Sequence record: PV625052.1
Strand: one strand, 5' to 3'
From: Klebsiella phage vB_Kpn_003_Koku
Length of the DNA stretch: 45,245 bases
Shown here: positions 2,756-44,347 of the stretch, in pieces
Numbering within the stretch: the first letter of the stretch is position 1
How the letters are laid out: each line of letters starts with the position of its first letter
Made by a program: the position numbers and the translations under genes
Notes under the pieces: model-generated
What the model saw: the letters and a program-made list of their open reading frames with translations, nothing else
What the model was told of the DNA's origin: nothing
The model's database searches: none

Positions 2756-2775
2756 TTCTATACTCGCCACTATTA
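2756..2775 (-). promoter_or_regulatory. Phage RNAP promoter (minus-strand TAATAGTGGCGAGTATAGAAG)
   Basis: The plus strand reads ttctatactcgccactatta, one member of a family of at least 12. A hairpin, gccact-ttTAATAGTGGC, overlaps its upstream edge. Confidence 0.75.
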
Positions 2776-3008
2776 AAAGTGGCGGGATAAATTACAGGAA
2801 AGTGGTGATCTCTCGCACAGATGAGGCAGGCCAGGTTTTACCCTGACGTGCGCCGTCTTTGCCCAGATGATTAACGGTTACGAAGCCTTCGCGGGTGATG
2901 ATGTGGAGGTCATCGACACCAACCATGTCTCTCATCAAAGATGAAGTCGGTGGCATGTTGCCCGGTGGCTTCTTTCTTAAGGCTGGACACGAACGAATTT
3001 TACCTTCA

Positions 3009-3815
3009 TTAGTATTCCTCTCCTTCATCCATATCCGGCGCTGGCACGTTGTCAGCAGGCGGAACATCCTGGGCTGGCACAGTGGCACCAGTGTCCAGAG
3101 GTTTCTTATCGTCAGGCTTGGCATCTTTGTCTGCCGGAGCCTTCCATTTCGGGTCAGCTTCACGGGCAGCTGCAATGATTGCCTCGACGTGAGAACCAGG
3201 AACTGACAGGTTCTTGGCACCATGCTTGTGCTCAGACATGAAATACTGGCGAACCAGGTGTGCCGGGATTGCATCCAGGACTTCCTTGGTGATGTCGTTA
3301 AACTTGACATGACCAATAGTCTTGATGCCTTCCTCTTCCGCAGCGGAGAGGACCAGCTTAGCCAGCTTGCCAGTACAACCAGCGAAGCCCTTGCTTGCCC
3401 AGTTGACGTACAGCGGCAGACCGTCTTCACCCTTCTCATCCGAGCCCTTCATGTTGGCGATGAAAGGAACACCAATGCATTCATCAAATCCGCTGAGTTC
3501 TTCTTTCGGGTCCAGGGCGTTCATGAGCACAGTCAGCTCAGCCTTGTCGCCGGACTTGAGGCCTACAGCACGCCAGGCTTCCATGCGGGAGCCATCTTCG
3601 TTCAGGTCTTCGTCGCCCATAAGGATGGCCTGGAGAAGGACGTAGTTGACAGGCTTCTTCTCTTCACGAGTGGAGCCTTTAACAAAGACATCCTGGTAAC
3701 TGCCGACGTGAATAACCGCGCCGAGGATGGCATCATGGGGACCCACTTCGGGGTTCTTGAATACCTTACCGCCGCCAGTTGCTACGTCAGCACCAAAGTC
3801 AAAATCGCGAGCCAT
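3009..3815 (-). CDS. Putative ssDNA-binding / replisome accessory protein (a T7 gp2.5 analogue by position and tail). Function is tentative.
   Basis: 268-aa ORF with its own promoter. Its C-terminus is long and acidic (...APDMDEGEEY) and ends in an aromatic residue, as in T7 gp2.5 and gp4. The body of the protein shows no clear OB-fold motif. Confidence 0.5.
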   Translation of the reverse strand: MARDFDFGADVATGGGKVFKNPEVGPHDAILGAVIHVGSYQDVFVKGSTREEKKPVNYVLLQAILMGDEDLNEDGSRMEAWRAVGLKSGDKAELTVLMNALDPKEELSGFDECIGVPFIANMKGSDEKGEDGLPLYVNWASKGFAGCTGKLAKLVLSAAEEEGIKTIGHVKFNDITKEVLDAIPAHLVRQYFMSEHKHGAKNLSVPGSHVEAIIAAAREADPKWKAPADKDAKPDDKKPLDTGATVPAQDVPPADNVPAPDMDEGEEY

Positions 3816-3936
3816 TATATCTCCTATTCATTCAGGTTAGTATCTGTGGTGTCGCCAGGGTGTAGCCTCTCCCTACTTGCGCGCCTACTGTAGAAGTTGA
3901 CGACACTCAGATACCCACTCAAAGAGTGAGCACCTG

Positions 3937-3956
3937 TTCTATACTCGCCAGTATTA
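3937..3956 (-). promoter_or_regulatory. Phage RNAP promoter (variant ...CTGGCGAGTATAGAAC)
   Basis: The plus strand reads ttctatactcgccagtatta, the 'cagtatta' variant. It lies about 120 nt upstream of the 3815 start. Confidence 0.7.
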
Positions 3957-4331
3957 TCCGACAAGCTTATCCAGCTCAGAGGAGAGAGCAGCGCGGCGAG
4001 ACTTGAGGTCATCCGCGATTGCCTGGGATACTACAGCGATGCTTGCCTTCTTGATGTCGAAGGAAGAGTCCAGCTGTTTGCAGTCCTTGTCGTACTTGGC
4101 ATACAGCGCATCCAGGCCAGCCTGCAACTCATCTGCCAGCTTCTGCTTGGCCGCATAGTGATCGGTGTGCAGTGACACCATGTTCTCGCTGCGCTTCTCT
4201 TCGGCTTTTGCCAGGTCGATCTCGGTGCGGAACAGCTCAGCTTCCAGCTTAGAGATAAGCTTCTTGCGAATAGAAGTGCCTACCTTACGGAAGAACTGAG
4301 ATACAGAAACATAGGTATTGATTAAAGACAT
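3954..4331 (-). CDS. Hypothetical coiled-coil protein (125 aa)
   Basis: ORF rich in K/E/L heptad-like sequence (LEAELFRTEIDLAKAEEKRSE...), directly downstream of promoter 4362..4381. Confidence 0.55.
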   Translation of the reverse strand: MSLINTYVSVSQFFRKVGTSIRKKLISKLEAELFRTEIDLAKAEEKRSENMVSLHTDHYAAKQKLADELQAGLDALYAKYDKDCKQLDSSFDIKKASIAVVSQAIADDLKSRRAALSSELDKLVG

Positions 4332-4361
4332 TTATTAGATCTCCAGGTTAAGTTTGTATTC

Positions 4362-4381
4362 TTCTATACTCGCCACTATTA
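4362..4381 (-). promoter_or_regulatory. Phage RNAP promoter
   Basis: The plus strand reads ttctatactcgccactatta; the start codon at 4331 follows about 30 nt downstream. Confidence 0.75.
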
Positions 4382-4600: not shown

Positions 4601-4654
4601 AATAACCTCATTAATTTACGGGTATACAATTGAGGGCCAATGAATGACCCTCTG

Positions 4655-4674
4655 TTCTATACTCGCCAGTATTA
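4655..4674 (-). promoter_or_regulatory. Phage RNAP promoter ('cagtatta' variant); its TAA doubles as the DNA polymerase stop codon
   Basis: The plus strand reads ttctatactcgccagtatta, and tta 4672..4674 is the DNAP stop codon. About 50 nt of downstream leader is duplicated at 44243..44327. Confidence 0.75.
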
Positions 4675-7212
4675 GTGCGTTTCCGCCCAAGATTGACCAA
4701 TCTTATACTCACCTGCCATAGGGCAACGCATCTTAAGATACTGCCCAGCCCAGGTCATCGCCTCGGCAATGATTTGCCCTGCACGATGGTACTTACGGCG
4801 GCACTTAATATGGTCATCTTCCACGGATACAAGTGCTGCTGCTGACCACATTCGTCCATCCGCATCGATATGGATTCGCTTCTCCTCTGGGTCGAATGCT
4901 GCTTTGATTGCAGCCTTCTCAGTATCGAAGCCTTCCCTGGTGAACGGGATATCATAATCAAGTACGAGGACTTCATCTTCTGGAACCTCCATCTGAATCT
5001 CATCGTGGACGTTAGCCACGCCAGCAGGGTGCCCATCTGCATCCAAAGCCACACCCTCTCGGCGCATCACCGCAAAGGCCTTGACCGCTGCATACTTCAT
5101 ACACAGCGAGCCAGTCATTTGAAGCAGAACGTTCAGCATGGTATGCTCCTTGAGCACCCCGCCTTTGGAACGGATACGACCCCAATGCCCATCAGGGGCC
5201 TGTAGGTAGCCGTAGTTATTACCTGCTGCTATGACTGACTCGCGCAGACGTGCCAACGATGGCAACTCAATCTCGAAGCGTGCAACAACCTCACGCATGA
5301 CCTTCTCGGTGACACCACAGACCGCTGCCAGGTTGGCTATGCCAGAGCCATAAAGGAAGGCATAGATAAAGGTCTTAGCCATGTCACGCTTAGGCAGGCC
5401 TGCCTTTAACTGGTTATGTGTGTGGATGTCTCCGTGCAGAACAATCTCTTGGTACTCTGGGTCATTCATAAAGTGACTGAGGACTCGAAGCTCTAGCCCT
5501 GCACCATCGCACCCCAGGATGAGCTTACCTTTCCCTGCGATAAATAGGTCACGCAGAGGGAAAAGACCACGAGCGGGGATATTAACAACATTACGGTGGC
5601 GCATGCGAAAAGTAGAGGTCCCAATACTGATAGCCACTGCTGGAACTCGCCACTCAGAGTCGTCCTTATCAGACGTAGGCCAATACCCAAACCTTTCATA
5701 GTAGGTCTGCGCACTTATGCCAAGCTCTTTTGAGAAGGCTGCTGGCACAAGGCCACGACACTTTCTCTTACCAGCCTGCGAGGGCCAGATCCCCTTTTCC
5801 TTGAAGGCTTCAACGTCACCACGGTTGAGGATCTGACCACGACGGGATACGAGTATGTACCATCGCGCGATACCCAGGCACCAATCAGGGACTGTTTTAC
5901 CATCACGTGCGGCTGCTTCCTGCCATACCTTAATGGATTTTTCATTGATCTTACCACTCCAGGGTTTGGGTAGTTCGTTGTGCTCATCAATATAAGCTTG
6001 GTCGGTGTCATTGAACTCCACACCTCGCCACCCATACTGATAGATAATTTCCTTTACAGTGTCCCGGTTACCTAGGGGGATGTCCTCAAAGGTGACTGGC
6101 GTGTAAGGGCCAATATGCTTGATGCTGGGCGTATCGTTTCGATTCCCTCGGATGTGTGGGTAATCTTTCTTGACAGCAGCAGCCCAATCACCAGACTTAG
6201 TGGTGACGGACCATACAGTCTTCCTATCACCCCTACGTTCGGAGTACAGGAACGCCGTGTCCCCGAGACGTACAGGGATTCCATTTGACCTCGCCCACTC
6301 GTTAGCCGCAGCAACATATTCATTCTTCTCCTCTTGCTTAAAAGGTTTGGACTTGATACGCATCGGCATGTGCGGGCGGAAGCCTGCATCTGTGGCATCA
6401 ATCTCTTTATCCAGGATGGCGCAGCGCTCGATTGCCTTGTCGATGTCCAAGCGGAACCCACGTTCAGCCTGCCTGGTCATTTCCAGAGCAACTATGGATT
6501 CCATGTGGAACGCAGTCTCGATACCCAGCTTGGTCCTCGGGTTAAGACCGCGAGCCTTATGCTCCTTCCATTCGCCATTAAACAGCCAGAGGAACAGGTC
6601 ACGACCGATTGCCACGTCTTCCCTTACACGGTGTACCATGTGATCGGTCAGTTTGCTCCAATCTTCGTTCTCTGGCTTATAGCGACCGATACGTATACCG
6701 TGTGCCTCGATGGAGTGAGGCCCTACGTTACCCAAGCCTTTGGCGTAGGCCTGCGGTGGCAGTCTTCGGTCTGGATTGAGAAGACGGGACATCACCAGGG
6801 TGTCCATCACCTTTACAGGGCAAAGGTCAGAGCGATACGCCGACTTACCACGCTTCTCTGTGTGGTTGTACCCCTTGAAGATGGCAGGGAACGCCTTCTC
6901 CATTAAGAGGCCATCGTAGCCTAGCCAGTTTTGTGAGATGATAGCATCTGCATACCGAAGGAAATTCACGCCATCTTCGAGACTACCATCTTGATGCCCC
7001 TCCCACTCCACCAGGCGCTCCCTGGCTTCTGGGTCCCTGTCTTCATACGCATTGAAGAATAGGAACTCCTCTGTGGTAATAAGGTCCATGCAGCAAATGA
7101 TATGCACATCATGGTTGCCTTTGTCATATCGGATTGCATCAAGTAAACCCTTGGCCTCCGCATCCATAACCAGGAGACGGCCTTGGCCTGCTTTCTTCCA
7201 ATCAATTGTCAT
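4672..7212 (-). CDS. DNA polymerase, family A (T7 gp5-like), with an N-terminal 3'-5' exonuclease domain
   Basis: 846 aa. Motif B reads RDMAKTFIYAFLYGSG and motif C reads VHDEIQMEV. The exonuclease region (DAEAKGLL...) sits at the N-terminus. Confidence 0.9.
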   Translation of the reverse strand: MTIDWKKAGQGRLLVMDAEAKGLLDAIRYDKGNHDVHIICCMDLITTEEFLFFNAYEDRDPEARERLVEWEGHQDGSLEDGVNFLRYADAIISQNWLGYDGLLMEKAFPAIFKGYNHTEKRGKSAYRSDLCPVKVMDTLVMSRLLNPDRRLPPQAYAKGLGNVGPHSIEAHGIRIGRYKPENEDWSKLTDHMVHRVREDVAIGRDLFLWLFNGEWKEHKARGLNPRTKLGIETAFHMESIVALEMTRQAERGFRLDIDKAIERCAILDKEIDATDAGFRPHMPMRIKSKPFKQEEKNEYVAAANEWARSNGIPVRLGDTAFLYSERRGDRKTVWSVTTKSGDWAAAVKKDYPHIRGNRNDTPSIKHIGPYTPVTFEDIPLGNRDTVKEIIYQYGWRGVEFNDTDQAYIDEHNELPKPWSGKINEKSIKVWQEAAARDGKTVPDWCLGIARWYILVSRRGQILNRGDVEAFKEKGIWPSQAGKRKCRGLVPAAFSKELGISAQTYYERFGYWPTSDKDDSEWRVPAVAISIGTSTFRMRHRNVVNIPARGLFPLRDLFIAGKGKLILGCDGAGLELRVLSHFMNDPEYQEIVLHGDIHTHNQLKAGLPKRDMAKTFIYAFLYGSGIANLAAVCGVTEKVMREVVARFEIELPSLARLRESVIAAGNNYGYLQAPDGHWGRIRSKGGVLKEHTMLNVLLQMTGSLCMKYAAVKAFAVMRREGVALDADGHPAGVANVHDEIQMEVPEDEVLVLDYDIPFTREGFDTEKAAIKAAFDPEEKRIHIDADGRMWSAAALVSVEDDHIKCRRKYHRAGQIIAEAMTWAGQYLKMRCPMAGEYKIGQSWAETH

Positions 7213-7213
7213 G

Positions 7214-7528
7214 TCACCACCTTAATACTGTAAATGAGAGAATCTTATAGCCAACTTGATCTTCAAGTCGCCACAAATCATCTTCCGTAAGAGAGTCATG
7301 CTCCATTTCGAAATACTCTACCACTGTATCAATGTGACCAGAGGCTGTGATGTAGGTAACTAATATCTTAAATACCTTCATAGGCACCATCCGGTATGTC
7401 ATCAATTGGACGCGGCTTGTTTTGGAAGCGGTCATAATAATCCCAATCTGAATCCCATTCGATACGCATAATTTTACCCTCATGCAATTAATATGATAAT
7501 AGGCTGTCCAACACGTTGGACAACCCAT
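7214..7528 (-). CDS. Hypothetical protein (104 aa)
   Basis: ORF between the DNAP and primase genes. Its first codons are encoded by palindrome copy 7504..7523, so the start is uncertain. Confidence 0.4.
   Translation of the reverse strand: MGCPTCWTAYYHINCMRVKLCVSNGIQIGIIMTASKTSRVQLMTYRMVPMKVFKILVTYITASGHIDTVVEYFEMEHDSLTEDDLWRLEDQVGYKILSFTVLRW
7504..7523. repeat. 20-bp palindrome TTGTCCAACRYGTTGGACAA (copy 1 of 7)
   Basis: TTGTCCAACGTGTTGGACA on the minus strand, followed by GCC. Confidence 0.8.
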
Positions 7529-8728: not shown

Positions 8729-10732
8729 TCAATACTCCGATTCTTCCTCGGGTGTCTCTTCTATACCCGCCACTATTGGTTCAGGCACAGTGCTGCCTTG
8801 ATATGCTCCAGTATCAAAGCTTCCGCTGCCTCCATCCAGCTTTCTTGCTTCCTTGAGGGGCAGCAAGCGGCCAGTGGAGAGGTCACCTTTAAGGCATACC
8901 TTAGTTCCAGTAAAGATGCCCTGGTCTCGGTCTTTAACACAGCTAATAAACGTTGTTGTTCTCTCATCAAGAGACTCAGCTCGTGTGTTGCGCTCGATTC
9001 CAAGGGCATAGCTCGCCCAGAACCCGATAGCCCCGGACCCCCTAAAATCAGATAGAATGACGTCTCCGCCTTCCTCATGCTGCTTGCGTTGTCCTCCAGG
9101 TCGCGTAAGGTGCGATACCAGGAACAAGGTAATAGCGCATCTATCTTTGATATTTCCAAGCCGCTTAACACACTCATCAAGTGCGCCCACTTTACCGCCG
9201 AATTGTCTTTCATCTAATTTAATCCCCGTTAGGTTATCAATTACGATGTTGCGGATACCCATTGCTTCAAACTCCAGGCAGGTCTGCTCAACCTTCTCCA
9301 TAGAGTAATCGCCCTCAAGGTCGGCGACGAACAGCTTACCTGTGTCGGACACATAGTCGATGGCTTCATCTGCCATTTCATCCGTATAGTCCAGCACCTC
9401 ACGGTAACCTGATTCTCGCGGGTCGTTGGTTGGTGGCAGCTCAATGCGCTTATCAATCCACTTGCCGATAAAGGCACGAGACACCTTGACTGTCGGGTCC
9501 TCTGTGGAGATAACCCCGACAGACTCACCATGCACCTCGATGAGATGCTTAACGACCTCTCGGAGGAACTCTGTCTTACCTACGCCGGACCCGGCACCGA
9601 TGATGAACAGCTGGTTCTTTCGGATGCCCAGGGTAATCTTGTTGAGTTCAGGCCAGGGCCATGAGAGACCAGGTTCCGGGCGGGCAGCTTTAAGCTTATC
9701 CTTCATAGAAGAGATGGACTTAATCTGACTACCAAAGACCTCCTCAGCAGACTTGGCATTAAACCAGGAGTCTACGAACTCCTTGGCTTTGCCAGCCATG
9801 AGCGCCTTGTTTGCATCTTTGCAACCAGTAGGGTATTCCAGGATGAAGGACTTACCAGGGAACAAGCGAGCCGCCTGCTGGTTAAGCTTCATACCTACTT
9901 CATCACCATCAAAGCCCCAGATGATTTGCTTGAACTGCGAGATGTTCTCACGGTTAGCCACAATCTCCTGGAGGCATGCCTCGCCCTTGTTGATAGACCA
10001 GACATGATAAGGCTTGCCCTCATACTGAGTACCCCTTGCGGAGTCCAGCAGCATCTGCTGTGCAGCCAGGGCATCCAGCTCACCGCCTACGATGAGAAGC
10101 TTGTCCTTGCGTCTCCCTTTGTCCAACACGTTGGACAAGGTATTCATGCCGAACAAATCCTGGTCACCGAACAGCTTACCAAGGTGTCCGAACTTGAAGT
10201 CCTTAGGTAAGGTGCGGCACTTGGCGCCTACTAGGCGTCCTTGTTCAAACCGTGGGTAATAGTGTCGATTGACTGCTCCATCTTCATCATGGCCGACACG
10301 AACATCATAGATGGCACAGATCTCACCTCGGATATGTCGGGATACGAGGTTCTTACGCTTAAGGGTTTGGAACCACTCGACATCGAGGTCCCACTCTTCC
10401 TGGATGGCTGCACGTTCTTCATCGTTCATCACCTCGTAGCGGTCTGCCATTCGCATAGCACCCAAGGCTATCGCACGGTCTGCCGCGTTGGTTATCTTAC
10501 CTTGCTTAACAAGGTCATTGAATTGCTTAACAGTCCACTTGGTGGAGCTAAGCGGCATATCAAGTAAGCTTACCCCTTCACCTGGGGCTTCATAGTAGGG
10601 CTTGCCAGATGTGTGGAAGTGACCACGGCTACAATACTTGCCACCATCCTCGAAATGGATAAGGTGGTTCTGCGTATTGTCATGTCCGTTCTTCATACAC
10701 TCCGGGCAACCTGAGTTGTTGATAATAGCCAT
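8729..10732 (-). CDS. Primase-helicase (T7 gp4-like)
   Basis: N-terminal Cys4 zinc ribbon (CPECMKNGHD...CSRGHFH), Walker A IIGAGSGVGKTEF, and an acidic C-terminus ...ETPEEESEY. Confidence 0.9.
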   Translation of the reverse strand: MAIINNSGCPECMKNGHDNTQNHLIHFEDGGKYCSRGHFHTSGKPYYEAPGEGVSLLDMPLSSTKWTVKQFNDLVKQGKITNAADRAIALGAMRMADRYEVMNDEERAAIQEEWDLDVEWFQTLKRKNLVSRHIRGEICAIYDVRVGHDEDGAVNRHYYPRFEQGRLVGAKCRTLPKDFKFGHLGKLFGDQDLFGMNTLSNVLDKGRRKDKLLIVGGELDALAAQQMLLDSARGTQYEGKPYHVWSINKGEACLQEIVANRENISQFKQIIWGFDGDEVGMKLNQQAARLFPGKSFILEYPTGCKDANKALMAGKAKEFVDSWFNAKSAEEVFGSQIKSISSMKDKLKAARPEPGLSWPWPELNKITLGIRKNQLFIIGAGSGVGKTEFLREVVKHLIEVHGESVGVISTEDPTVKVSRAFIGKWIDKRIELPPTNDPRESGYREVLDYTDEMADEAIDYVSDTGKLFVADLEGDYSMEKVEQTCLEFEAMGIRNIVIDNLTGIKLDERQFGGKVGALDECVKRLGNIKDRCAITLFLVSHLTRPGGQRKQHEEGGDVILSDFRGSGAIGFWASYALGIERNTRAESLDERTTTFISCVKDRDQGIFTGTKVCLKGDLSTGRLLPLKEARKLDGGSGSFDTGAYQGSTVPEPIVAGIEETPEEESEY
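8759..8777 (-). promoter_or_regulatory. Weaker variant phage promoter, embedded in the last codons of the primase-helicase gene
   Basis: The plus strand reads ttctatacccgccactatt, two mismatches to the consensus. It is positioned to drive the 7964..8665 block. Confidence 0.4.
10119..10138. repeat. 20-bp palindrome copy 3, inside the primase-helicase coding sequence
   Basis: tttgtccaacacgttggacaa, encoding LSNVLDK on the minus strand. Confidence 0.7.
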
Positions 10733-11081: not shown

Positions 11082-11105
11082 CTTGTGATTGAATTGTTAG
11101 TCCTG

Positions 11106-11125
11106 TTCTATACTAGCCACTATTA
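11106..11125 (-). promoter_or_regulatory. Phage RNAP promoter
   Basis: The plus strand reads ttctatactagccactatta, one mismatch to the consensus. Confidence 0.7.
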
Positions 11126-11216: not shown

Positions 11217-11238
11217 ATCTCCTTCTCCGAAGGGTTTG

Positions 11239-11258
11239 TTCTATACTCGCCACAATTA
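11239..11258 (-). promoter_or_regulatory. Phage RNAP promoter ('cacaatta' variant); the first one downstream of the RNAP gene
   Basis: The plus strand reads ttctatactcgccacaatta. It is arranged in tandem with 11106..11125. Confidence 0.7.
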
Positions 11259-11285: not shown

Positions 11286-11317
11286 GAACGAGAAAAAGGG
11301 CGACCCGAAGGCCGCCC
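11286..11317 (-). terminator. Rho-independent terminator immediately after the RNAP gene, analogous to the T7 early terminator TE
   Basis: The minus strand reads GGGCGGCC-TTCG-GGTCGCCC followed by TTTTTCTCGTTCT: an 8-bp GC stem with one G.U pair, a TTCG loop and a U-run. Confidence 0.7.
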
Positions 11318-11322
11318 GTGGT

Positions 11323-13959
11323 TTACGCGAACACGTATTCTGAATCCATGATTTCGTTGAGGTCAAAGTCTCCGAGTTCCGGCACCGTAATGCCCAGGTC
11401 ACACAGCCAGCGCTCCTCGTGCACCGCCACCAGGTCGGCCAGGACGTGACGGTCCTGATACATCGCAATCATCTGCCCTTTCAGGGCGTCCCGGAGGTCC
11501 GCCGTGCGGGGTGCGTGAGTACCGAAGGAGTCGTGAATAACCGCGATTGAGGTCACCCCTTTATCCACAAGGTCGCACACTGTCATGATAAGGTGTGATG
11601 CATCATGCCCGTGAACGAAGTTCGGAGCTGCCGCCCCCATCATTGCAGCCTCATCTACTATGTCGGTCTCAACCGACAGGTACATATTGATCATGCCCAG
11701 CAATTGGGTGCGCACCCGCAACAGGTCAGTAGACATAATTTTCTGATACAAGATAAAGCCAGTCGGCAAGGGGTACTCCAGGGCCTCATTCCGGCGTGCT
11801 GCTGCCCTTGCGAGGCTGCGTATCATCTTCATAGCAACCACCGGAGCCTTCACAACCTCAGAGATTGAGGGCCAAATAAGGGCGGTCATGTAGTTAAGGG
11901 CCTGCCCTTCTGTGATGTAGGAATCCCCACCGAAAGGGTGCACCGGGTTAATGCCGCGCTGCTCTTGCGCTGCCGCTTTTGCTTCCTTCTCCTCCAGGTC
12001 AGCCAGGTAGTCAGCCACGGCCTCACGGCAGGTGATGCGGGTAGAGCCATACGGCAGGGTCATAACAGGCTTCTTGGTCAGGGACCTGGTGATACCTATG
12101 CTCAACCAAGAGCGCCCCATCTCCCGCAACTGCTCTGCGTCCAGCTCAACACTACCCGATTTGAAGATAGTTCCATCCGGAGCCGATATGGCTGCATTGT
12201 TCTTTTCAATGACAACCTCAGCCACGCGCCCGTAGATATCTTGTGGTGAGTCTGACGGCTTAAGGTTGACCGCAGCAGCCCCAACGGAATCCCGGAGCAT
12301 TGCAGAGTAGTGCTGGATACCGGAGCAAGAGCCATCCTGGTGCACAGGTAAGTGGGTGTAGAACTCACCGCCACGGCCTTCTTCTACCTTATCCAGGTAC
12401 TCAGCGTACTCAAAGGCCCAAGCCAGGAACTCATACGGCTCATCCGCCTTCACCCACTGTGTAAAGGTCAGCGGGTCGCTGGCGATGTCCCGGCACATCT
12501 CCTGGAACTCCTCGGTCATTGCATTTGATACCCGGACATCAAAAGTTTTCTTGTCCCAGCCCCAAAGGTTAGCACCGCATACCAGGAACCAGCGCAAATC
12601 CTCCACCGTGAGCAGCTGGCGGCCTTCTTTGAACTTAAGCAGGGATTTACCAAGGTCATTGCTCTGAGGGCTTAGCGTGCTGCTCTGTGCGTATACGCGC
12701 GAACGGCTGTCCAGCGTGTAAACAAAATAAATATGCGGGAATTGTGCATATTTACGGGCCTGGCCCAGCATGCGAGCCACGGCGGCAGACTTAGAACCGC
12801 GCTTAGTCTCAGCGGTATACAGGCGTGCACATTCTGATTTCCAGGACAGGAAGGAATCCCACTGTTCAGGGGTCAATGCAGCCTTGAGTTCAGCCCCGCG
12901 AAGGTCCTGGAATTCAACAGGCACAGGGTTACCCGGCTTATTATCCCGGTCAATGATTGGCTGAAAAGAAGGTACACCATAGCCCAGATTGAGCCTTACA
13001 ACCTCTTGGGCGACATCAAGTACCTTGGTATTGATGACCCATTCAACGCGCTGCAATGCGTTAACGGCCTTGTATACCATAGGCATTTGCTTAATAGTGA
13101 GCTTGCGAACGTGCTCACGTGGGCCTTTGACCATACGAATACGACTAGCCACCTTCTCGGTGTGGAATCCGCCGTTAAACGGGGTTTTCCAGTCGCGGGG
13201 AGGGACTACGCAAGGACCATAAGCCGGGGCCAGCTGTGCTACATGCTCGCGGAATTCATGCACCCATGCACCGATAGACTCGGATGTTTGCAGCTTGGTT
13301 ATCTGTTTCTTGCCGCCAGCACTGGCAACATAACGGAAAAACACAGGCTCACCATTGTAGAACACCGAACCTTCCATAGCAGCCATCAAAGTTTGGCCCA
13401 CCTGGAGATGGATTTCTTTCGTCCAGGACTCCCAGCGGGTGACCTTGTCCTCATCTTGAGGGGCTGCCTTGTCTGCGAGTGACTTTTCAGCAGCTACCAT
13501 TACGCGATGCTTATGCTTATACAGCTTAGAGCGGGAGCGCTCCAGGTTCTTTTTGACCTTCTCCATGTACTTTTCAGCCTGAGAATCCAGCTTAGTAAAT
13601 CGCACCTGGTCTTCTATGCGCTCACCTATGGTAATGGCAATGTGCTGATACGATGAATCGCTGTGGAGCATATCCATAACCACCTTCATAGTGATGTAGG
13701 CGGCTACTTCATTCTCACAGCACTGGAGGAAAGGGAGGGATACGGCGCGGACACCTGGCTTACTCTCTGACTCCTCTTTGAATGCCTGAATACCAGCAGC
13801 CAGAGGTTCAATGAATTGAGAGATAAGGCGGCGATTCCATGCGGCATCGCTGGCATTACCTGCGTCAAGGTGGCGCTGCTGCGCCGACTCAAAGCGAGTA
13901 ATACCACCGTTAAACATCTCTTCTTCTAATTCAATCTGAATTGCCTGTAAATCCATCAT
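11323..13959 (-). CDS. Single-subunit DNA-dependent RNA polymerase (T7/SP6 family)
   Basis: 878 aa. [16 protein letters not shown] matches T7 [16 protein letters not shown], and the C-terminus ...EYVFA matches the T7 FAFA foot. Confidence 0.95.
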
Positions 13960-14367: not shown

Positions 14368-15270
14368 CTATTTGCCAAGTGCTTCTACTGCTTCCTGAAT
14401 CAGGGGCCAGGCGTCATGGCCTTCACCATAACCCAGCTTGACCAGCTCACGCTTGGCCTTGTTCACTGCTGCAAGGCTCATAGACTGCTCAACACTCAGA
14501 CCTAAGCGGGCATACATACACTTAGATTTGAACTGTGGGAGCATCGGGGCGCTTGCTTTCTTGGTCTCGCGCGTCGCGGTTAGCTCCATGATGCGAGCAT
14601 GCAGGGCTGCGTTGTCCTCTCTCAGCTTTTTCAGCTCTGACAGCAACCCCTCTTGGATGGCATCAGGCACAACTGGCGCTACTGTGGGCGCTGGGGCTGG
14701 CCCTGCGGCCTCTCTAGTGTCAAACGGGGCATCACTAGCGCTTTCCCCCTGAGGAGCTGAGGATGGCGCAGGCTGCGTTATTTCGCGGGCCTGGCTATCA
14801 GCTTCCTGGGTTGCCTGCTGTGCTGCCAGCGCTTGCTTGACAGCGGCCAGGGCAGGAGATACCGCGCCTTTGGCGGGCTTGCCCAGCAACTGGTTCGCCG
14901 CTGCCGTGTCCAGCTCACCCACAGCAGCCAGGTCCGCCGCTTTATCCATCAGCTCGCCATCATCTGCAAACGGCACCAGCATCAACAGGACGCGCATGGC
15001 GACACCTGAGAACTCCTTACGGGTGGCGAATACACGGGAGATGTTCATCAGGTTGTAACACTGAGCCTTCTTGATGCCAAAGGTATCATCCGCCCACTCC
15101 AGAAAATCCCGCTGATTATCAAAATCCTCCTTACCCTCAGCCAGCAGAGCACCAATTTTAAGGTAGTTGCTGCCGATGTCATTCAGCAGGGTGATGATTT
15201 CAGCGGCCACTTGGTCACGAACCGGGGTAGTGTCCAGGATTTCAACGTTTTCGATGGTTGCAGTAGTCAT
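14368..15270 (-). CDS. Hypothetical early protein (300 aa), Ala/Pro-rich in the centre
   Basis: Long ORF in the early region, downstream of variant promoter 15343..15361. No motif recognised. Confidence 0.65.
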   Translation of the reverse strand: MTTATIENVEILDTTPVRDQVAAEIITLLNDIGSNYLKIGALLAEGKEDFDNQRDFLEWADDTFGIKKAQCYNLMNISRVFATRKEFSGVAMRVLLMLVPFADDGELMDKAADLAAVGELDTAAANQLLGKPAKGAVSPALAAVKQALAAQQATQEADSQAREITQPAPSSAPQGESASDAPFDTREAAGPAPAPTVAPVVPDAIQEGLLSELKKLREDNAALHARIMELTATRETKKASAPMLPQFKSKCMYARLGLSVEQSMSLAAVNKAKRELVKLGYGEGHDAWPLIQEAVEALGK

Positions 15271-15342
15271 GATATAGCCTCATTGAGTTATGTTAGGGAA
15301 CTTCACTATGCATCCCGAGAGATGCATAAGGCTGTTCTCTAT

Positions 15343-15361
15343 CTTATACTCGCCACAATTA
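15343..15361 (-). promoter_or_regulatory. Divergent phage-promoter-like site (...GGCGAGTATAAGATAG)
   Basis: The plus strand reads tcttatactcgccacaatta. The -17..-5 region is conserved but the initiation region differs. A 7-bp hairpin (atgcatc...gatgcat) sits in the leader. Confidence 0.45.
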
Positions 15362-16245: not shown

Positions 16246-16275
16246 AATGTACCTATGTATGCCGCTTGTTGTCAA
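16246..16275 (-). promoter_or_regulatory. Candidate host sigma70 promoter (TTGACA-18-TACATT)
   Basis: On the minus strand, TTGACA at 16275..16270 and TACATT at 16251..16246. Confidence 0.3.
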
Positions 16276-17041: not shown

Positions 17042-17070
17042 AGTATGTATTAACAGGAAAACCCTGTCAA
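17042..17070 (-). promoter_or_regulatory. Candidate host sigma70 early promoter (TTGACA-17-CATACT), resembling T7 A1
   Basis: On the minus strand, TTGACA at 17070..17065, a 17-nt spacer, then CATACT. Confidence 0.35.
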
Positions 17071-21666: not shown

Positions 21667-21746
21667 AAACCCTCCATTACTTCCAGCCTCTCACCTTGAA
21701 AGACTGCGAGTAATGCTGGTTGTTTATTGATCAAACCAAAGTACCC

Positions 21747-21766
21747 TTCTATACTCGCCACTATTA
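21747..21766 (-). promoter_or_regulatory. Phage RNAP promoter upstream of the tailspike genes
   Basis: The plus strand reads ttctatactcgccactatta. Confidence 0.75.
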
Positions 21767-23891: not shown

Positions 23892-23921
23892 TTAAATACC
23901 TTAGTATTCCTTTTCTATTGC

Positions 23922-23941
23922 TTCTATACTCGCCACTATTA
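23922..23941 (-). promoter_or_regulatory. Phage RNAP promoter; its TAA is the large-terminase stop codon
   Basis: The plus strand reads ttctatactcgccactatta, and tta 23939..23941 is the terminase stop. Confidence 0.75.
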
Positions 23942-30300: not shown

Positions 30301-31148
30301 ACATCACCAGACTTGAGTGGGTCACGGTCGCGGACAGCCATGTAGGCATCGTACTCCATTGCCTCTTGCACAGCTTTGGATGCGTTGAGATCGAAGTCAT
30401 CAGCCCCATCCACAACAGTGCGCAGTGGGTTTCCGGGTTCAACTGGCGGGACGTCTGCATCGTCACCTAAGTTTCCACCACGGATACGCTCACGTGTCAG
30501 CGCACCGATAGTCCCACCCATAACTGCACCAAAGCCAAAGGCTAGCATGACGTTATCCGCATCTCGCTGGTAGTCACCTTCGCCAATTACAGCTTCTAGG
30601 GCAGCGTTTCCTGCGCCTGCAACGGCAGCAGTCTTCAAGATGCGACCGATACGACCAACTTTCCAAGCACCAGCCACCGGGGCGGCTACAATAGATGCAG
30701 CCCACCCAGCCGGGTCGGCAACACCAGCAAACAGCTGTGCAGCGAAACCAGTGAACCCATTACGGGCCAGGATATCATTGCGGTCCTTGTCAGCCTTGGC
30801 ATTTGCCATGTTGAATTGCAGTTGCTCTGGAGACCTAACGTCCTTTGTGATATCCTGTGCAACCTCGTAGCCATACAGTCGGGAAAGCTCGTCTTTGGTT
30901 GTGTCAGGCACAGAGTACCCTTCTTGTGGCGTGAAGGTGGTGTTGTGACGCTCAAGCGCCCGCTGTCCACCATACAGCGCCCACTCATTATCTACAGCCG
31001 TTCGCAGGACATGGTCGTCTGCACGTGCAGCCTCAGCCTTACGTTCTGATTCTGCCACCTGCGAGAAGGTTGGTGGCAAGGTCCGGCTGTCTGTGGGGAC
31101 CCAATTTCCATTCTGTTGCATGGTTACCTCTCTATTAATGACAATCAT
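27309..31148 (-). CDS. Internal virion (ejectosome) protein, T7 gp16-like
   Basis: 1279 aa, the largest ORF, in the last position of the internal-protein block. Confidence 0.8.
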   Translation of the reverse strand: MIVINREVTMQQNGNWVPTDSRTLPPTFSQVAESERKAEAARADDHVLRTAVDNEWALYGGQRALERHNTTFTPQEGYSVPDTTKDELSRLYGYEVAQDITKDVRSPEQLQFNMANAKADKDRNDILARNGFTGFAAQLFAGVADPAGWAASIVAAPVAGAWKVGRIGRILKTAAVAGAGNAALEAVIGEGDYQRDADNVMLAFGFGAVMGGTIGALTRERIRGGNLGDDADVPPVEPGNPLRTVVDGADDFDLNASKAVQEAMEYDAYMAVRDRDPLKSGDVDIDYSIAKHTEALTADANYRFSSKDKGNLKKQIRELEAEAASMRSKKVDAQAEAAAKAGAPRTKTEALDWEVQKKALARRYDEPHADLVARIEEAKATLAKMDNVTKAKDELKRFSNLSREEKLKELGLDVKPEPVPMKRAVQDALAAIRAERASRQTPTMKFDEAQRAAEQASKQEPDNLSAARVEGSEIQGEQFDLSDSMEDLMDTLAREAYASRVKPVKWAGNMGSVSSVIMNSKNPVFRGLGLRLLENAQGGSYHGKTAAILADVNNNLIRSAEKNRYNDGFSQFIKDNNLRAIDYLNPAVTRDFNNQVYTAIVSGITENTSPGVKLAAEGIADKFKKGLELRKSAGEKGFEDVKSAKDYVPVIFDGIKITEAVNRLGSKEAVIDLLSLGYQTGKYKMGKKAADALAKVQYVRGSDSTLSSRVAFDRVVSQEQQAVLIADLKKAGVPDSIIDNFIEGTELSEMAESVSNRAKASMGINTQASYGGMRVQDLLNTNIGELADNYAKEAAGGAALARMGFPTTQSALNAIDAAERAGRNMVGMDAGAIKQLRAEADMLRDSVRLINGNTVDADPNSGIVKGTRRVREITGLLRLGQMGFAQVPEIARSVVKMGLGTVLHSVPATRFLRSRAAREGGVAQGRLLEPELREMEELIGYIGEDNWLTGWNVRHDEFGESMDNLGRLSKIADNGLAMGSRINLWLSGFKAVQGGSEKIVARSINKRLKEHLSGGRKLPQADLDEVGLDEATMKRLQRHFDDNPAHADYNGQQVRMMNFDAMEPDLRETVGVAVRRMGGRLIQRNFIGDEGIWMNKWWGKALTQFKSFSIVSIEKQLIHDLRGDKIQAAMILSWSTLLGFAAYATQMQMQALGREDSDKFLRDKFSTQSMAMGVFNKLPQVAGFGLAGDALATFGLMPDSMMQAPGRLGFQKQGFGELVAGAGVIGDAVGAINMMSRYATGDDDVSTRQVVDKVRRLVPLANTIGIGQMTKASVDLLED

Positions 31149-37905: not shown

Positions 37906-38012
37906 TATCTCTCCTTTCAGCCACAGACACAGGACCTGTTGCCAGGACATAGCACCAGAAGCCAGCATACAAGAGTAAGGTAACACAGAGTAAATAATAC
38001 ATGTTCCCTCCT

Positions 38013-38050
38013 AAGCAAAAGAACCCCACCCCTCAGATAGAGAGATGGGG
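38013..38050 (-). terminator. T-phi-like terminator after the capsid gene
   Basis: The minus strand reads CCCCATCTCTC-tatct-GAGGGGTGGGG (an 11-bp stem with 2 G.U pairs) followed by TTCTTTTGCTT. Confidence 0.6.
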
Positions 38051-38056
38051 CTTGTA

Positions 38057-39148
38057 TTAGCTTACCGCTTTGGTCAGGATAACCTTGCGGTTCGCACGTT
38101 TGGTAACGACGGTGTCGTCAGTACCAGAGCCGCTCGGAGCACCAGTAGAGCCATCACGTGCAGTGGTGACAACAGACACAGCTTCCCAGCGATCCGGGAT
38201 TGCACCTTCGGCCAGGTAGGTGTCGATGTAGAAGGTCTTCTCCTTCTTCTCCCAGAAGATGTCGCCAGTCAGCTCGATGGTACGACCGACCAGCAGTGCA
38301 TCCATAGAGAAGATTACCGCCACCGCGCCAGCCATCGGTGCCGTGGTGTCGTAACGGAAACCGTTATCGGCATTGGACAGCTTGTGGTGCGCCGCGCCCT
38401 GAGAGAATTTCGGGAAGCGGTTAGACGGAACAACCGGGACGTTGAAGGATTTCAGAGCGAAGCCCTGTACCGTGCTTTCGTCAGCCAGGGTATAGCTGCG
38501 ATCGACGATACGATCCATGTCACGCAGTGCGTTGAAGAACTTCCACGGCATCAGGATGACCAGATCGGAGATGTCCACTTCCTGCTCCAGCTGCTGCTCC
38601 AGCGCATACTCGATAGCAGCGGCCAGATATTGCGGGGAGGTTTCAGCGGTATCCGCCGTGATGTTCACGTTGATGGAGAAGCCATGACCAGGCACGCGCG
38701 GGTTGGTGCGAAGAGCTTTGGTGTTGCTAATACCACCCAGCAGCAGCTGCTGCACAACCATCTCATCTTCCAGGCGCTTAAGCTGCTTGGCCTGGTTTAC
38801 AGCGATCTTCGGCTTGAGGCTGTCGATGTCACCCTGGACATCATGCAGCATTGCTACAGTGTTACGGGCGATAACGGTGGTGTCGATGACAACCTGGTTT
38901 TTATCGGCCTTGGTCGGGGTAGCTGCCGGAGACTGGCCCGGTGCCAGCACCTGGATTTCAGTTTCACCCAGGTATTTGTTGGACACGGTGTTGGTGCCAG
39001 TTACAGTTTCCACCTGGAAGTGGCTCAGCAGGTTCTCGCCTTTCAGATACTGCTCGCGTACCTTGCCGTTAAACTTCTCGATCAGAAGACTGTCAACCTC
39101 ACCGGAGTGGGATACGGCAACGTTAGTCAGTACGTTAGGTGTAGACAT
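38057..39148 (-). CDS. Major capsid protein (T7 gp10-like, HK97 fold)
   Basis: 363 aa with a dedicated promoter and leader hairpin. Its position and size match T7-like major capsid proteins. Confidence 0.9.
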   Translation of the reverse strand: MSTPNVLTNVAVSHSGEVDSLLIEKFNGKVREQYLKGENLLSHFQVETVTGTNTVSNKYLGETEIQVLAPGQSPAATPTKADKNQVVIDTTVIARNTVAMLHDVQGDIDSLKPKIAVNQAKQLKRLEDEMVVQQLLLGGISNTKALRTNPRVPGHGFSINVNITADTAETSPQYLAAAIEYALEQQLEQEVDISDLVILMPWKFFNALRDMDRIVDRSYTLADESTVQGFALKSFNVPVVPSNRFPKFSQGAAHHKLSNADNGFRYDTTAPMAGAVAVIFSMDALLVGRTIELTGDIFWEKKEKTFYIDTYLAEGAIPDRWEAVSVVTTARDGSTGAPSGSGTDDTVVTKRANRKVILTKAVS

Positions 39149-39206
39149 TATTTCTCCTTATAAACTATTGAAATAGTAGGGAATTACGAATGCCGCGATT
39201 CCCTGC

Positions 39207-39226
39207 TTCTATACTCGCCACTATTA
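39207..39226 (-). promoter_or_regulatory. Phage RNAP promoter for the capsid gene (phi10 analogue); its TAA is the stop of the scaffold C-terminal ORF
   Basis: The plus strand reads ttctatactcgccactatta. The leader contains a GGGAAT...ATTCCC hairpin. Confidence 0.8.
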
Positions 39227-42497: not shown

Positions 42498-42672
42498 CTT
42501 CTACTCCGTAGATCTCTTCCACTTTCTCCCGGATTGCCTCAACAGACAACCCGAGTTCCTCAGCATCTGCCAGGAGATTGTAACCTGGCTCCATGCCACA
42601 CGACAGGCTTTCGAAGATAGCCTCAGCTACCTCAACTGCCCGTGTGGCTCGCATTGAATCTAAACTACGCAT
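42481..42672 (-). CDS. Hypothetical small acidic protein (about 63 aa, from MRSLDS...)
   Basis: ORF immediately downstream of the ligase; its N-terminal extension in the track would overlap the ligase. Confidence 0.45.
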   Translation of the reverse strand: MRSLDSMRATRAVEVAEAIFESLSCGMEPGYNLLADAEELGLSVEAIREKVEEIYGVEDEDSE

Positions 42673-43624
42673 CGGCGTCCTCCTTATCATGCCGCAGCTC
42701 GCCAACTTTAGGAAGTCGAATCTTCCCTTTGCTGGAGTCTTGCAGACCATAGACAGTGAAGATGCGACCGATTACATTAAGTTCGCCGCCATTCTTAATC
42801 TCGTTATACATACGGGTTGCATCTTCATGAGACCAACCCTTCCCCAGCATAGCCTTCACCTTCTGAGTGCCATGCCACTTGAAGATAAGGTTTGCCACCT
42901 TACCTGTGTATTTGCCTTTACCTTCTTCCCAGCCGATGCAGCGTAGGTCATACGCAACTGTGCGTACAATCTTCATCTGCCGCCAGCCTTTGTGGCCTGC
43001 CTCCCAATCAACATCCCGCTTGAAGACAGCACCCTCACGACCAGCATCAATGTGCTTTTGTGCGAAGGCCTCGACCTCTTCCCAGGTATTGCACTTGGTG
43101 ATTGGTAGGTAGTTGTCATAGACACAAAGGATGTTCGGAACAAGGTGTGCCGTGATTCGCTTGACCAGACCAGCATGACGCTTGGTGAATGGTGCAACAG
43201 CAACGCCACCTATGAAGTCTGACAGCGTGACCATATCAAAGAAGTCGATATACAAATCATCTTTGATTTGCTGACCGATGAAGTCCAGGTCATTCACACG
43301 GTCAGGGTTGACCACACCAGACAGGGCTTCCAGGTAGATGTCCACAGCCATAGACTGTAGCTCACCAAGATATACACCAGCTGGCAGGCAGGAGAACCGA
43401 GACTCCAGGTGCTCAACATTGCTGAGCTTCTTACCTGTACGCCCGAAGATACCCACCCTGCCATCGTGGCGAACCACAGTTGCGCTAAAGATACCATCAC
43501 GTTTTACCTGGGCATACAGTGGCAATTGCCGCTTGCTCTCCGGGACTTCCTCCATGTGCTTGACCAGCTGCACCGGGTGATTACGGTGGTCCCAAGATAG
43601 ACCCAGGAATTCAAAGATATTCAT
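42665..43624 (-). CDS. ATP-dependent DNA ligase
   Basis: 319 aa. The adenylation motif I YAQVKRDG (a KxDG lysine) lies near the N-terminus. Size and position resemble T7 gp1.3. Confidence 0.85.
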   Translation of the reverse strand: MNIFEFLGLSWDHRNHPVQLVKHMEEVPESKRQLPLYAQVKRDGIFSATVVRHDGRVGIFGRTGKKLSNVEHLESRFSCLPAGVYLGELQSMAVDIYLEALSGVVNPDRVNDLDFIGQQIKDDLYIDFFDMVTLSDFIGGVAVAPFTKRHAGLVKRITAHLVPNILCVYDNYLPITKCNTWEEVEAFAQKHIDAGREGAVFKRDVDWEAGHKGWRQMKIVRTVAYDLRCIGWEEGKGKYTGKVANLIFKWHGTQKVKAMLGKGWSHEDATRMYNEIKNGGELNVIGRIFTVYGLQDSSKGKIRLPKVGELRHDKEDADA

Positions 43625-43836
43625 AGGTCACCTACCGGGATTATGACATGGCTTTTTACACACATCCACGTTGTTGGGTATTTGTCTGACTTGTTTGAAA
43701 TGCACAAGTCAGTCCCTTTTCTCATAAAGGAGAAGGCATCCGTGTTATATACAAAGGCAGAAGGTCTAAGGCACATTCCACCCCCTGGCTCTGCAAAGAA
43801 CAACCCGCTCTTTTTCTCACGAATCAGAAATCTCAT
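43621..43836 (-). CDS. Hypothetical protein (71 aa)
   Basis: Its start overlaps the MazG stop and its stop overlaps the ligase start, a translational-coupling signature. Confidence 0.45.
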   Translation of the reverse strand: MRFLIREKKSGLFFAEPGGGMCLRPSAFVYNTDAFSFMRKGTDLCISNKSDKYPTTWMCVKSHVIIPVGDL

Positions 43837-44228
43837 TTGCGTAACTCCTTATCCAGGAGGAACATGATGTTAACTGCTGCGTGTGCCAGGTGAAGCTCAC
43901 CAGACTCTGGGTCTACCTTCTCACCCTTGTGATGCTGGGTGAGGTGTCGCATAAGTGCATCCAGGTAGCGCATCTCACCTTCTGGGACTTTATCCCAATT
44001 ACCAACGGCATACTTGTCGGCCCCGAAGCCAAGCAGCGTGCCAAGCTTCTCGAATGCATGCGGTACTTCTACCAGCACCAGGCCAAGACGTGGCTTACCT
44101 TGGTCGGCCTTGACGCCAACCGGGATTGGTTTGCAATCACAGTAGGGTAAGCCCCTCTGGCAGGAGCAATTTGGGTTATGATTAACCCCATATACTTTTT
44201 CTGCGCTTGGTCCATCTACTAAGCTCAT
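43833..44228 (-). CDS. MazG-like nucleoside triphosphate pyrophosphohydrolase (tentative)
   Basis: Start refined to MSLVDG (GGAGGTAG Shine-Dalgarno). It carries an EExGELxHAAVNIMFLL-type helix typical of all-alpha NTP-PPase/MazG proteins. Confidence 0.55.
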   Translation of the reverse strand: MSLVDGPSAEKVYGVNHNPNCSCQRGLPYCDCKPIPVGVKADQGKPRLGLVLVEVPHAFEKLGTLLGFGADKYAVGNWDKVPEGEMRYLDALMRHLTQHHKGEKVDPESGELHLAHAAVNIMFLLDKELRK

Positions 44229-44242
44229 GCTACCTCCAATAA

Positions 44243-44327
44243 TTAATTTACGGGTATACAATTGAGGGCCACACCTCACCTCCCTCGGATTAAACATACA
44301 ATCATGTATGAATGGTGTGACCCTCTG
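44243..44327 (-). repeat. Leader module duplicated at 4604..4654 (ttaatttacgggtatacaattgagggcca ... tgaccctctg)
   Basis: Near-identical 30-mer and 10-mer segments flank a variable insert. Both copies lie directly downstream of a 'cagtatta' promoter and form a GAGGG...CCCTC hairpin at the transcript 5' end. Confidence 0.7.
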
Positions 44328-44347
44328 TTCTATACTCGCCAGTATTA
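44328..44347 (-). promoter_or_regulatory. Phage RNAP promoter ('cagtatta' variant); its TAA is the phosphoesterase stop codon
   Basis: The plus strand reads ttctatactcgccagtatta. Confidence 0.75.

Follow-up and report, generated by a model that had tools for sequence, protein, structure and literature searches.

The single-subunit RNA polymerases (RNAPs) of T7- and SP6-like phages read promoters whose genus-specific prediction for new phages is routine (PMC6989608, PMC4099482), and 11,218 such promoters have been mined from 840 genomes (Zhu et al. 2025; PMC11880802). Among SP6-like genera the consensus, written here with a slash before the start base (+1), is ATTTAGGTGACACTATA/GAAG in SP6 and K1-ULIP33, ATTTACTGGACACTATA/GAAG in Vectrevirus (K1-5/K1E-type), AATTAGGGCGGACTATA/GAAG in PP1 (a Pectobacterium phage, Axomammavirus) and ATTAACCACCCAGTATA/GAAG in Era103; the SP6 promoters were re-derived from the SP6 genome sequence. 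For the SP6-like Vibrio phage phiA318, a novel promoter (AATAAAGTTGCCCTATA) has been predicted whose -12..-8 block is peculiar to it and is proposed to keep other RNAPs out; an autoregulatory promoter is predicted before the RNAP gene (PMC4099482). The stretch of DNA analysed here (45,245 nucleotides, record PV625052.1; 'the window' denotes this stretch at its full length) is a circularly permuted Klebsiella phage genome of the SP6-like genus Gansuvirus (Molineuxvirinae). It carries repeated copies of a motif with the consensus TAATAGTGGCGAGTATA/GAAG (-17..+4, start at G). It is very likely that this motif represents the promoter set of the phage's own SP6-type RNAP, encoded at 11323..13959, and that this set has a distinct specificity and includes an early site that starts with A.

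The consensus is represented by 11 copies with at most two mismatches. The 22-mer TAATAGTGGCGAGTATAGAAGA, searched with up to three mismatches, also gives 11 matches, all on the minus strand, and none in 100 dinucleotide shuffles. A weight matrix built from the 11 strong sites (-17..+5, threshold 12 bits) identifies 13 sites, every one of them on the coding strand (0.07 expected). The two sites added by the matrix, at 15340-15361 and 30019-30040, score 21.4 and 18.2 bits, compared with 34-40 bits for the 11 strong sites. A match at 10630 (TGGCAAGTATTGTA, three mismatches, within the primase gene) was rejected as chance because it falls below the matrix threshold. The original prediction had proposed a family of at least 12 near-identical promoters, which agrees with the 13 sites, all on the coding strand, against approximately zero expected. 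Each copy had been placed by the low end of its TGGCGAGTATAGAA core, and +1 is this coordinate plus 2. Three copies had been described as degenerate; those at 15343 and 30020 are indeed divergent, but the copy at 8759 is one of the 11 strong sites (33.7 bits).

Information content across the 11 sites forms a sharp block from -17 to +3, is weaker to +6 and is absent upstream of -17. The block -17..+3 is the footprint of T7/SP6-type promoters. All 11 strong sites have TATA/GAA, as does the internal site at 30023, while the early variant reads TATA/AGA. Natural variants tolerated among the sites of the window include C at -12, T at -13, T at -7, G at -6 and C at -17. The promoter core is the commonest 10-mer family in the window, as it is in the genomes of SP6, K1-ULIP33, a Vectrevirus and PP1; Era103 is an exception, in that another repeat is commoner and the promoter core is still among its commonest 10-mers. 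Three CTGGCGAG copies (3937, 4655 and 44328) are real, as had been predicted, and so is the leader shared by two of them (4655 and 44328), which in the window have GAACAGAGGGTCA and short patches in common. In the related phage F4M1D, the counterparts of these two sites have the whole leader in common.

By Megablast, approximately 20 Klebsiella phages (KPN7, F4M1D, FBKp16, Kp7, PmP19 and others) match the window at 92–95% nucleotide identity and none is identical to it. The NCBI taxonomy places these relatives in the genus Gansuvirus, subfamily Molineuxvirinae, family Autosignataviridae. All long open reading frames (ORFs) of the window are on the minus strand, which is the coding strand and carries all of the features given below. 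The gene order is that of an SP6-like podovirus, permuted. The early region (~17100 to 14000) is followed by the genes for RNAP (13959..11323), primase/helicase, DNA polymerase and exonuclease and, after the wrap, by those for ligase, portal, scaffold, capsid, tail tube, internal virion proteins, terminase, lysis and tailspikes.

The 11 strong sites are intergenic or overlap only the end of the upstream gene, and lie 27–136 nt before the next ORF. Of the remaining two, one is intergenic in the early region and the other is internal to a gene. Six promoters begin with a TAA that also serves as the stop codon of the gene before them (44345-44347, 39224-39226, 23939-23941, 4672-4674, 4379-4381 and 3954-3956). 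The genes sharing their stops in this way are a phosphoesterase-like ORF (44345..45238), the scaffold gene, the large terminase gene (23939..25837), the DNA polymerase gene (4672..7212) and two small ORFs. SP6 shows a similar overlap of promoter and stop codon at its terminase gene and gene 23 (AY288927 numbering).

In position, the sites match the promoters of SP6 one to one. The first promoter after the early terminator (11237..11258, +1 at 11241) reads TAATTGTGGCGAGTATA/GAACA and corresponds to SP6 +1 6135. It is followed by the promoter at 11104..11125 (+1 at 11108; TAATAGTGGCTAGTATA/GAACA; SP6 +1 6304), in which T at -7 is fixed in 5/5 genomes. The site at 8757..8778 (+1 at 8761; CAATAGTGGCGGGTATA/GAAGA), also a variant fixed in 5/5 genomes, falls within the final codons of the gene for primase/helicase (8729..10732), and its SP6 counterpart, 8428, is likewise inside the primase 3' end. 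Three promoters are found in the region beyond the DNA polymerase gene. That at 4653..4674 (+1 at 4657; TAATACTGGCGAGTATA/GAACA) has a strong leader hairpin, that at 4360..4381 (+1 at 4364; exact consensus, TAATAGTGGCGAGTATA/GAAGA) lies 33 nt upstream of ORF 3954..4331, and that at 3935..3956 (+1 at 3939; TAATACTGGCGAGTATA/GAACA) corresponds to SP6 +1 13022. Another exact consensus, at 2754..2775 (+1 at 2758; SP6 +1 14303), is located 49 nt upstream of ORF 2338..2709. The promoter at 44326..44347 (+1 G at 44330; TAATACTGGCGAGTATA/GAACA; SP6 +1 17445) precedes ORF 43833..44297, and that at 39205..39226 (+1 at 39209; TAATAGTGGCGAGTATA/GAAGC; SP6 +1 22430) would drive the major capsid gene (38057..39148). 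The terminase junction carries a copy at 23920..23941 (+1 at 23924; TAATAGTGGCGAGTATA/GAAGC; SP6 +1 37790), and the last strong site, 21745..21766 (+1 at 21749; TAATAGTGGCGAGTATA/GAAGG; SP6 +1 39927), is upstream of a 545-aa ORF of the tailspike region (20029..21666). The junctions common to SP6 and the window are thus two after the RNAP gene, one inside the primase 3' end, and others downstream of DNA polymerase, ahead of the capsid gene, the tailspike and the homologues of genes 18 and 20 (AY288927 numbering), behind the phosphoesterase homologue and at the stop codon of the terminase gene. The base at +4 (GAACA as opposed to GAAG) usually agrees site by site between the two genomes.

The sequence recognized at these shared positions is different. 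The original prediction had described the region -4..+4 as like that of SP6 and the region -12..-5 as unlike it, and comparison with the SP6 genome confirms both points: TATAGAAG is common to the two phages, whereas the SP6 recognition block (-12..-5, GGTGACAC) is replaced in the window by GTGGCGAG, with 5/8 positions differing. The SP6 consensus is absent from the window at up to five mismatches, and no SP6, K1-5, PP1, Era103, T7, T3 or K11 consensus is found there at up to four. Conversely, the Gansuvirus consensus is absent from the other genomes compared.

The motif is highly conserved within the genus. All 13 sites are present at orthologous positions in F4M1D, KPN7 and PmP19, and 11/13 in FBKp16, where the other two are absent together with the genes that follow them. 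Variants peculiar to single sites recur as well: the primase site has CAATAGTGGCGGG, the second promoter after the RNAP gene has TGGCTAG, and the early site starts with AGATA. Across five Gansuvirus genomes, only 1/220 columns varies within -17..+3, compared with 145/627 in the flanks (Fisher p = 7e-20). Differences in gene content account for part of the upstream variation and raise the flank rate to some extent, but the contrast holds on the downstream side too. The boundary is abrupt, with 4/11 ortholog groups varying at -18 and none at -17. A search of IMG/VR for exact 15-mer matches found 52 loci, and more than one copy occurs only in contigs 93–96% identical to the window; the other 37 loci are single chance hits.

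The divergent internal copy (30019..30040, +1 at 30023; ATTTAGTGGCGCGTATA/GAAGA) lies inside the gene for a 1279-aa internal virion protein (27309..31148). Its positions -14..+6 are invariant in five genomes, and nearby codon positions vary. Internal sites are also seen at another position, in neighbouring internal-virion genes, in SP6 (+1 29410), K1-ULIP33 (30333) and PP1 (34050).

The predicted cognate enzyme is a single-subunit RNAP of 878 aa, which is 72% identical to SP6 RNAP and 35% identical to T7 RNAP. It matches the Pfam families RNA_pol (PF00940, 295.6 bits) and RPOL_N (PF14700, 98.4 bits), and the equivalents of T7 D537, D812, K631, Y639 and H811 are conserved. In a MAFFT alignment with T7 RNAP, the specificity-loop segment (residues 741-769, encoded at 11653..11739) corresponds to T7 739-770. 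The register is taken as valid because T7 R746, N748, R756 and Q758 fall correctly. R748, R750, M756, N758 and Y760 occupy the positions of T7 R746, N748, Q754, R756 and Q758. The equivalent of the AT-rich-recognition loop (residues 65-73, encoded at 13741..13767) differs from EGKKGRAPRALAFL of SP6.

Alignment of the specificity loop with those of SP6 and the K1-5-type phages, suggested along with the original prediction, shows that the loops differ. At the positions of T7 746/748/754/756/758 the residues are R/R/M/N/Y in Gansuvirus (three genomes), R/R/D/K/S in SP6 and K1-ULIP33, R/S/E/K/S in Vectrevirus, V/K/R/E/S in PP1 and R/S/R/R/S in Era103. Coupling analysis and mutagenesis have singled out positions 748, 756 and 758 as those that chiefly determine specificity (PMC11880802); here they read R/N/Y in Gansuvirus, R/K/S in SP6, S/K/S in the K1-5-type, K/E/S in PP1, S/R/S in Era103 and N/R/Q in T7. 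Genera with identical loops (SP6 and the Ulipvirus K1-ULIP33) have the same promoter, and every different loop goes with a different -12..-5 block. Relative to SP6, positions -11, -10 and -8 change in parallel with the loop, while -12 and -9 stay as in SP6, and the rewritten AT-rich-type loop parallels TAA in place of ATT at -17..-15. Next to the conserved hairpin Arg (T7 R231), Tyr occurs only where -5 is G, in Gansuvirus (R209-Y210) and Era103; lineages with C at -5 have Ala, Thr or Gln there. Phage Koku, considered as a possible nearer outgroup, turned out to belong to Ulipvirus, the genus of K1-ULIP33 with SP6-type promoters, and added nothing to the comparison.

Since the changes in the loop and hairpin match those in the promoter at -17..-15, -11/-10, -8/-7 and -5, a separate specificity of the Gansuvirus pair appears well grounded, and the pair is probably largely orthogonal to those of SP6, K1-5, T7, T3 and K11. 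The assignment of the motif to the phage's own RNAP, with a recognition block that differs from those of SP6, T7 and K11, had been made in the original prediction and is supported by the positional match to SP6, the placement by strand and junction, the near-invariance of the sites and the covariation with the loop over six genera. The further proposal of a distinct and potentially orthogonal specificity is borne out as far as the distinct block and the loop covariation are concerned, whereas orthogonality itself is a prediction drawn from them.

The early-region variant (15340..15361, where +1 would be A at 15344) reads TAATTGTGGCGAGTATA/AGATA (AGATAG). Its positions -17..-1 are identical to those of the promoter at 11258..11242, and only the initiating bases differ. 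The site lies 74 nt upstream of a 300-aa ORF (14368..15270) that precedes the RNAP gene, and ~1.4 kb upstream of the RNAP start. The claim that no copy exists between the terminal region and the RNAP gene is therefore incorrect, and was contradicted by the 'degenerate' copy at 15343 listed in the same prediction. The site is kept in F4M1D, KPN7 and PmP19, and in FBKp16 with one substitution; a further copy of the AGATA type is present in KPN7. TATA/AGA sites also occur upstream of the RNAP gene in SP6 (+1 2121), K1-ULIP33 (2596), the Vectrevirus phage 6949 (10294) and PP1 (2710), each carrying its own genus-specific recognition block. Based on these comparisons, it seems probable that the 15344 site is a functional RNAP target, namely a weaker, A-initiating promoter. 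Little else would account for a TATA/AGA site that stays in position with an atypical start and yet has a recognition block that changes from genus to genus with the promoter. The phage RNAP thus probably also transcribes its own gene. The distribution of these sites suggests that an A-initiating autoregulatory promoter may be a feature of the subfamily as a whole (five Molineuxvirinae genera).

An intrinsic terminator (11289..11317) directly follows the RNAP stop codon. It consists of a stem (11317..11298, GGGCGGCC-TTCG-GGTCGCCC) followed by TTTTT, and is the probable end of early transcription by the host RNAP. Both the terminator and the host-driven early transcription ending at it had been part of the original prediction; the former is real, and the latter is consistent with the sequence. 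Candidate sigma-70-like early promoters are located at 17042..17070 (a consensus match, TTGACA-17-CATACT, annotated as a promoter in the FBKp16 record) and at 16275..16246. A terminator-like hairpin with a 13-bp stem (38052..38022) and a T-rich tail is found right after the major capsid gene (38012..38052), analogous to T7 T-phi. A second hairpin, at 23828-23847, lies ~80 nt downstream of the terminase-junction promoter, and its counterpart is annotated as a terminator in the FBKp16 record.

These elements may be combined into a tentative transcription program, based on analogy to SP6 and T7. The early region would be transcribed by the host RNAP from sigma-70-type promoters near 17070 and 16275, and this transcription would read through the RNAP gene and halt at the terminator (11317..11298). 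The phage RNAP would then initiate at the 11 strong gene-junction promoters, with mostly GAACA starts for the DNA-metabolism genes and GAAG starts for the structural, packaging and lysis genes, and the hairpin after the capsid gene would serve as a T-phi-like terminator. The 15361..15340 site would let the phage RNAP transcribe its own gene from a weaker, A-initiating promoter. Within each promoter, the AT-rich-recognition-loop equivalent is predicted to read -17..-13, the specificity loop to read ~-12..-7 in the major groove, and the intercalating hairpin to open TATA at -4..-1. N758 and Y760 (K and S in SP6) align with the residues that contact -9 and -8 in T7, and M756 takes the place of the SP6 D.

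Several of the leaders are predicted to be structured. Three would have strong 5' stem-loops (39165-39209, 4613-4657 and 3895-3939), which begin at +3 to +6 and have predicted energies of -13 to -19 kcal/mol (z -3.3 to -4.0). The strongest, -18.7 kcal/mol, belongs to the promoter at 3939. In position they recall the hairpin in the leader of T7 phi10. The leader hairpin of the 11241 promoter, CCCTTCGGAGAAGG, is conserved with SP6 (ACCCGTCGGAGACGG in SP6, AACCCTTCGGAGAAGG here). Between the two post-RNAP promoters (11126-11236), this hairpin is followed in fixed order by about five 10-bp repeats of the TAGGTATACC type (11164-11214), a CT-rich tract, another hairpin and the second promoter. The same layout occurs in all six genera (SP6 6135-6304, K1-ULIP33 6591-6748, 6949 14273-14457, PP1 6930-7078 and Era103 7156-7300), and similar AGGTA arrays also follow the terminase promoter. 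The region resembles the T7 primary origin between phi1.1A and phi1.1B.

Promoter-plus-leader cassettes (sites 3939, 4364, 4657 and 44330) are also found exactly at gene-content breakpoints between Gansuvirus genomes. At these breakpoints, identical promoters and leaders follow upstream flanks that are unrelated, and in F4M1D the 4657-type leader is found behind the 44330-type promoter as well. This arrangement suggests recombination at the repeated promoters. Elsewhere, nothing in the window corresponds to the first 1 kb of F4M1D, and the tailspike-region ORFs (681 and 545 aa; 18005-21666) have little or no counterpart between the two genomes, which is the usual swapping of receptor-binding proteins. 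The physical genome ends and a terminal repeat were sought in the window and were not located.

The cassettes at breakpoints, the occurrence of one leader type at two loci in F4M1D and the two sites flanking a 10-bp repeat array that resembles a replication origin are all features that might be expected if the repeat were primarily a recombination or module-boundary element, or a site for a replication or packaging protein, rather than a promoter. This is very improbable. In its 3' half the motif agrees exactly with the SP6 promoter core known from experiment (TATAGAAG), all sites point the same way as the genes and stand, one by one, where SP6 has its promoters, and from genus to genus the variable half changes together with the specificity loop of the RNAP. 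Recombination would then be a secondary consequence of the repeated sequence, compatible with promoter function. A narrower doubt concerns the two weakest copies, which could be non-functional relics or chance near-matches, in which case the original picture of an early region free of such promoters would in effect hold. Both score far below the strong sites (21.4 and 18.2 bits as opposed to 34-40), the early copy (15361..15340) lacks G at +1, and the internal copy (30040..30019) is divergent at -17..-15 and has C at -6. However, the early copy is perfect from -17 to -1 and conserved in four relatives (F4M1D, KPN7, PmP19 and, with its one substitution, FBKp16), and the relic explanation fails for it because four other genera, represented by SP6, K1-ULIP33, 6949 and PP1, have TATA/AGA counterparts upstream of the RNAP gene, with their own recognition blocks. 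The internal copy, for its part, is invariant over -14..+6 in five genomes while neighbouring codon positions vary. It is thus unlikely that these two copies are without function.

If the motif is indeed the promoter set of the phage RNAP, the enzyme could nevertheless fail to be orthogonal, with cross-recognition of SP6- or K1-5-type promoters, or use of the window's sites by SP6 RNAP, and only weak discrimination of the changed bases. The 72% identity to SP6 RNAP is consistent with this, as are the promoter positions shared with SP6 (-14/-13, -12, -9, -6 and -4..+4) and with the K1-5-type (TGG at -11..-9), and the natural variants tolerated in the genome indicate some slack in recognition. 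On the other hand, 8/17 positions differ from SP6, five of them within -12..-5 and including -8, a base that discriminates between SP6 and T7 promoters. Neither of the residues aligned to T7 R756 and Q758 is the same as in SP6, most of the AT-rich-type loop has changed, and the SP6 and Gansuvirus consensus sequences are each absent from the other's genome. Cross-recognition of this kind therefore appears doubtful, although it is conceivable.

Other observations weigh against a distinct specificity with an early A-start site, or at least against its details. The Gansuvirus RNAP keeps Arg (R748) at the T7-746 position although -7 is G, and pairing of R746 with C at -7 holds in 91% of mined RNAP-promoter pairs (PMC11880802); a simple T7 contact map therefore cannot be fully right here. 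The SP6 and K1E clusters follow the T7 rules poorly, and SP6/K1E-type pairs did not transplant into T7 (PMC11880802). The PDB contains no structure of an SP6-type RNAP (only T7 is solved), and the residue-to-base assignments given above are taken from the T7 complex. Binding of RNAP at the AGA-start site and at the internal site, 30023, might not lead to productive initiation. Sigma-70 matches in the window are not enriched over shuffles, and for this reason the early sigma-70 promoters remain candidates. Finally, start sites, promoter strengths and orthogonality in Gansuvirus are all deduced from sequence. With these points taken into account, the identification of the motif as the promoter set of the phage's own RNAP is still strongly favoured. 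A more far-reaching interpretation, for which the evidence seems evenly balanced, is that the phage has a natural orthogonal SP6-family pair with a code new among characterised enzymes (N/Y reading G-C-G at -9..-7, Arg with G at -7 and Tyr with G at -5) and that an A-initiating autocatalytic RNAP promoter is general in SP6-like phages.

A promoter set of this kind is expected in every phage of the family, and its existence is not surprising; it is an ordinary feature of SP6-like phages with a so far undescribed consensus. A full-text literature search for the string TGGCGAGTATAG gave no match, and searches on Gansuvirus and its named members gave only isolation or taxonomy papers, in which no promoter is described. 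A paper on new phage RNAPs (PMC13029058) mentions neither Klebsiella nor the motif. The consensus was not found in papers or GenBank features, although it may already be listed in the mined dataset of PMC11880802. The deposited annotations of four Gansuvirus genomes contain no phage promoters, and the 'promoter' features of the FBKp16 GenBank record are sigma-70-type predictions, none of which coincides with the motif. The sites described here provide a predicted transcription map, with 13 start sites and two to three terminators, for a genus of Klebsiella phages that is collected for therapy. They also provide a candidate SP6-family polymerase-promoter pair, and such pairs are useful as orthogonal transcription parts. 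The pair adds to the data on protein-DNA recognition rules, the T7-derived version of which SP6/K1E-type enzymes did not follow in the largest mining study (PMC11880802). Across SP6-like phages, the conserved A-start promoter ahead of the RNAP gene points to a positive feedback on synthesis of the enzyme.

Compared with described systems, the phiA318 promoter resembles the present one in having been derived computationally, and differs in sequence, host and genus. T7 (TAATACGACTCACTATA/GGGAGA) shares the enzyme family, the promoter architecture, an identical TAATA at -17..-13 and the presence of two promoters after the RNAP gene, but differs in 7/8 bases of -12..-5 and in its start (GGGAGA as opposed to GAAG). 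In T7, no phage promoter is known immediately ahead of gene 1. PP1 shows the fewest differences from the Gansuvirus consensus (6/17), with its own G/C-rich block and G at -7. In PP1, however, this G is paired with Val at T7-746, where Gansuvirus has Arg, and positions -11..-8 and -5 differ. The K1-5/K1E-type promoters share T-G-G at -11..-9, and the three CTGGCGAG copies of the window also share C at -12. They differ in having A, C and C at -8, -7 and -5, where the window has C, G and G, and in the loop residues S, E, K and S as opposed to R, M, N and Y at T7 748, 754, 756 and 758. From SP6 (Zindervirus), the Gansuvirus promoter differs at 8/17 upstream positions, having TAA for ATT (-17..-15), TG for GT (-11/-10), CG for AC (-8/-7) and G for C (-5). 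The specificity loop is unlike TCLMGDIKMSLQ of SP6, and the AT-rich-type loop and the residue after the hairpin Arg also differ. In other respects the two systems are closely alike: they belong to the same subfamily, the genomes are collinear, the promoters have the same length (-17..+3/+6) and the same TATA/GAAG core and start, and in both phages the RNAP gene is followed by a terminator and the capsid gene by a terminator-like hairpin, and an early TATA/AGA site precedes the RNAP gene.

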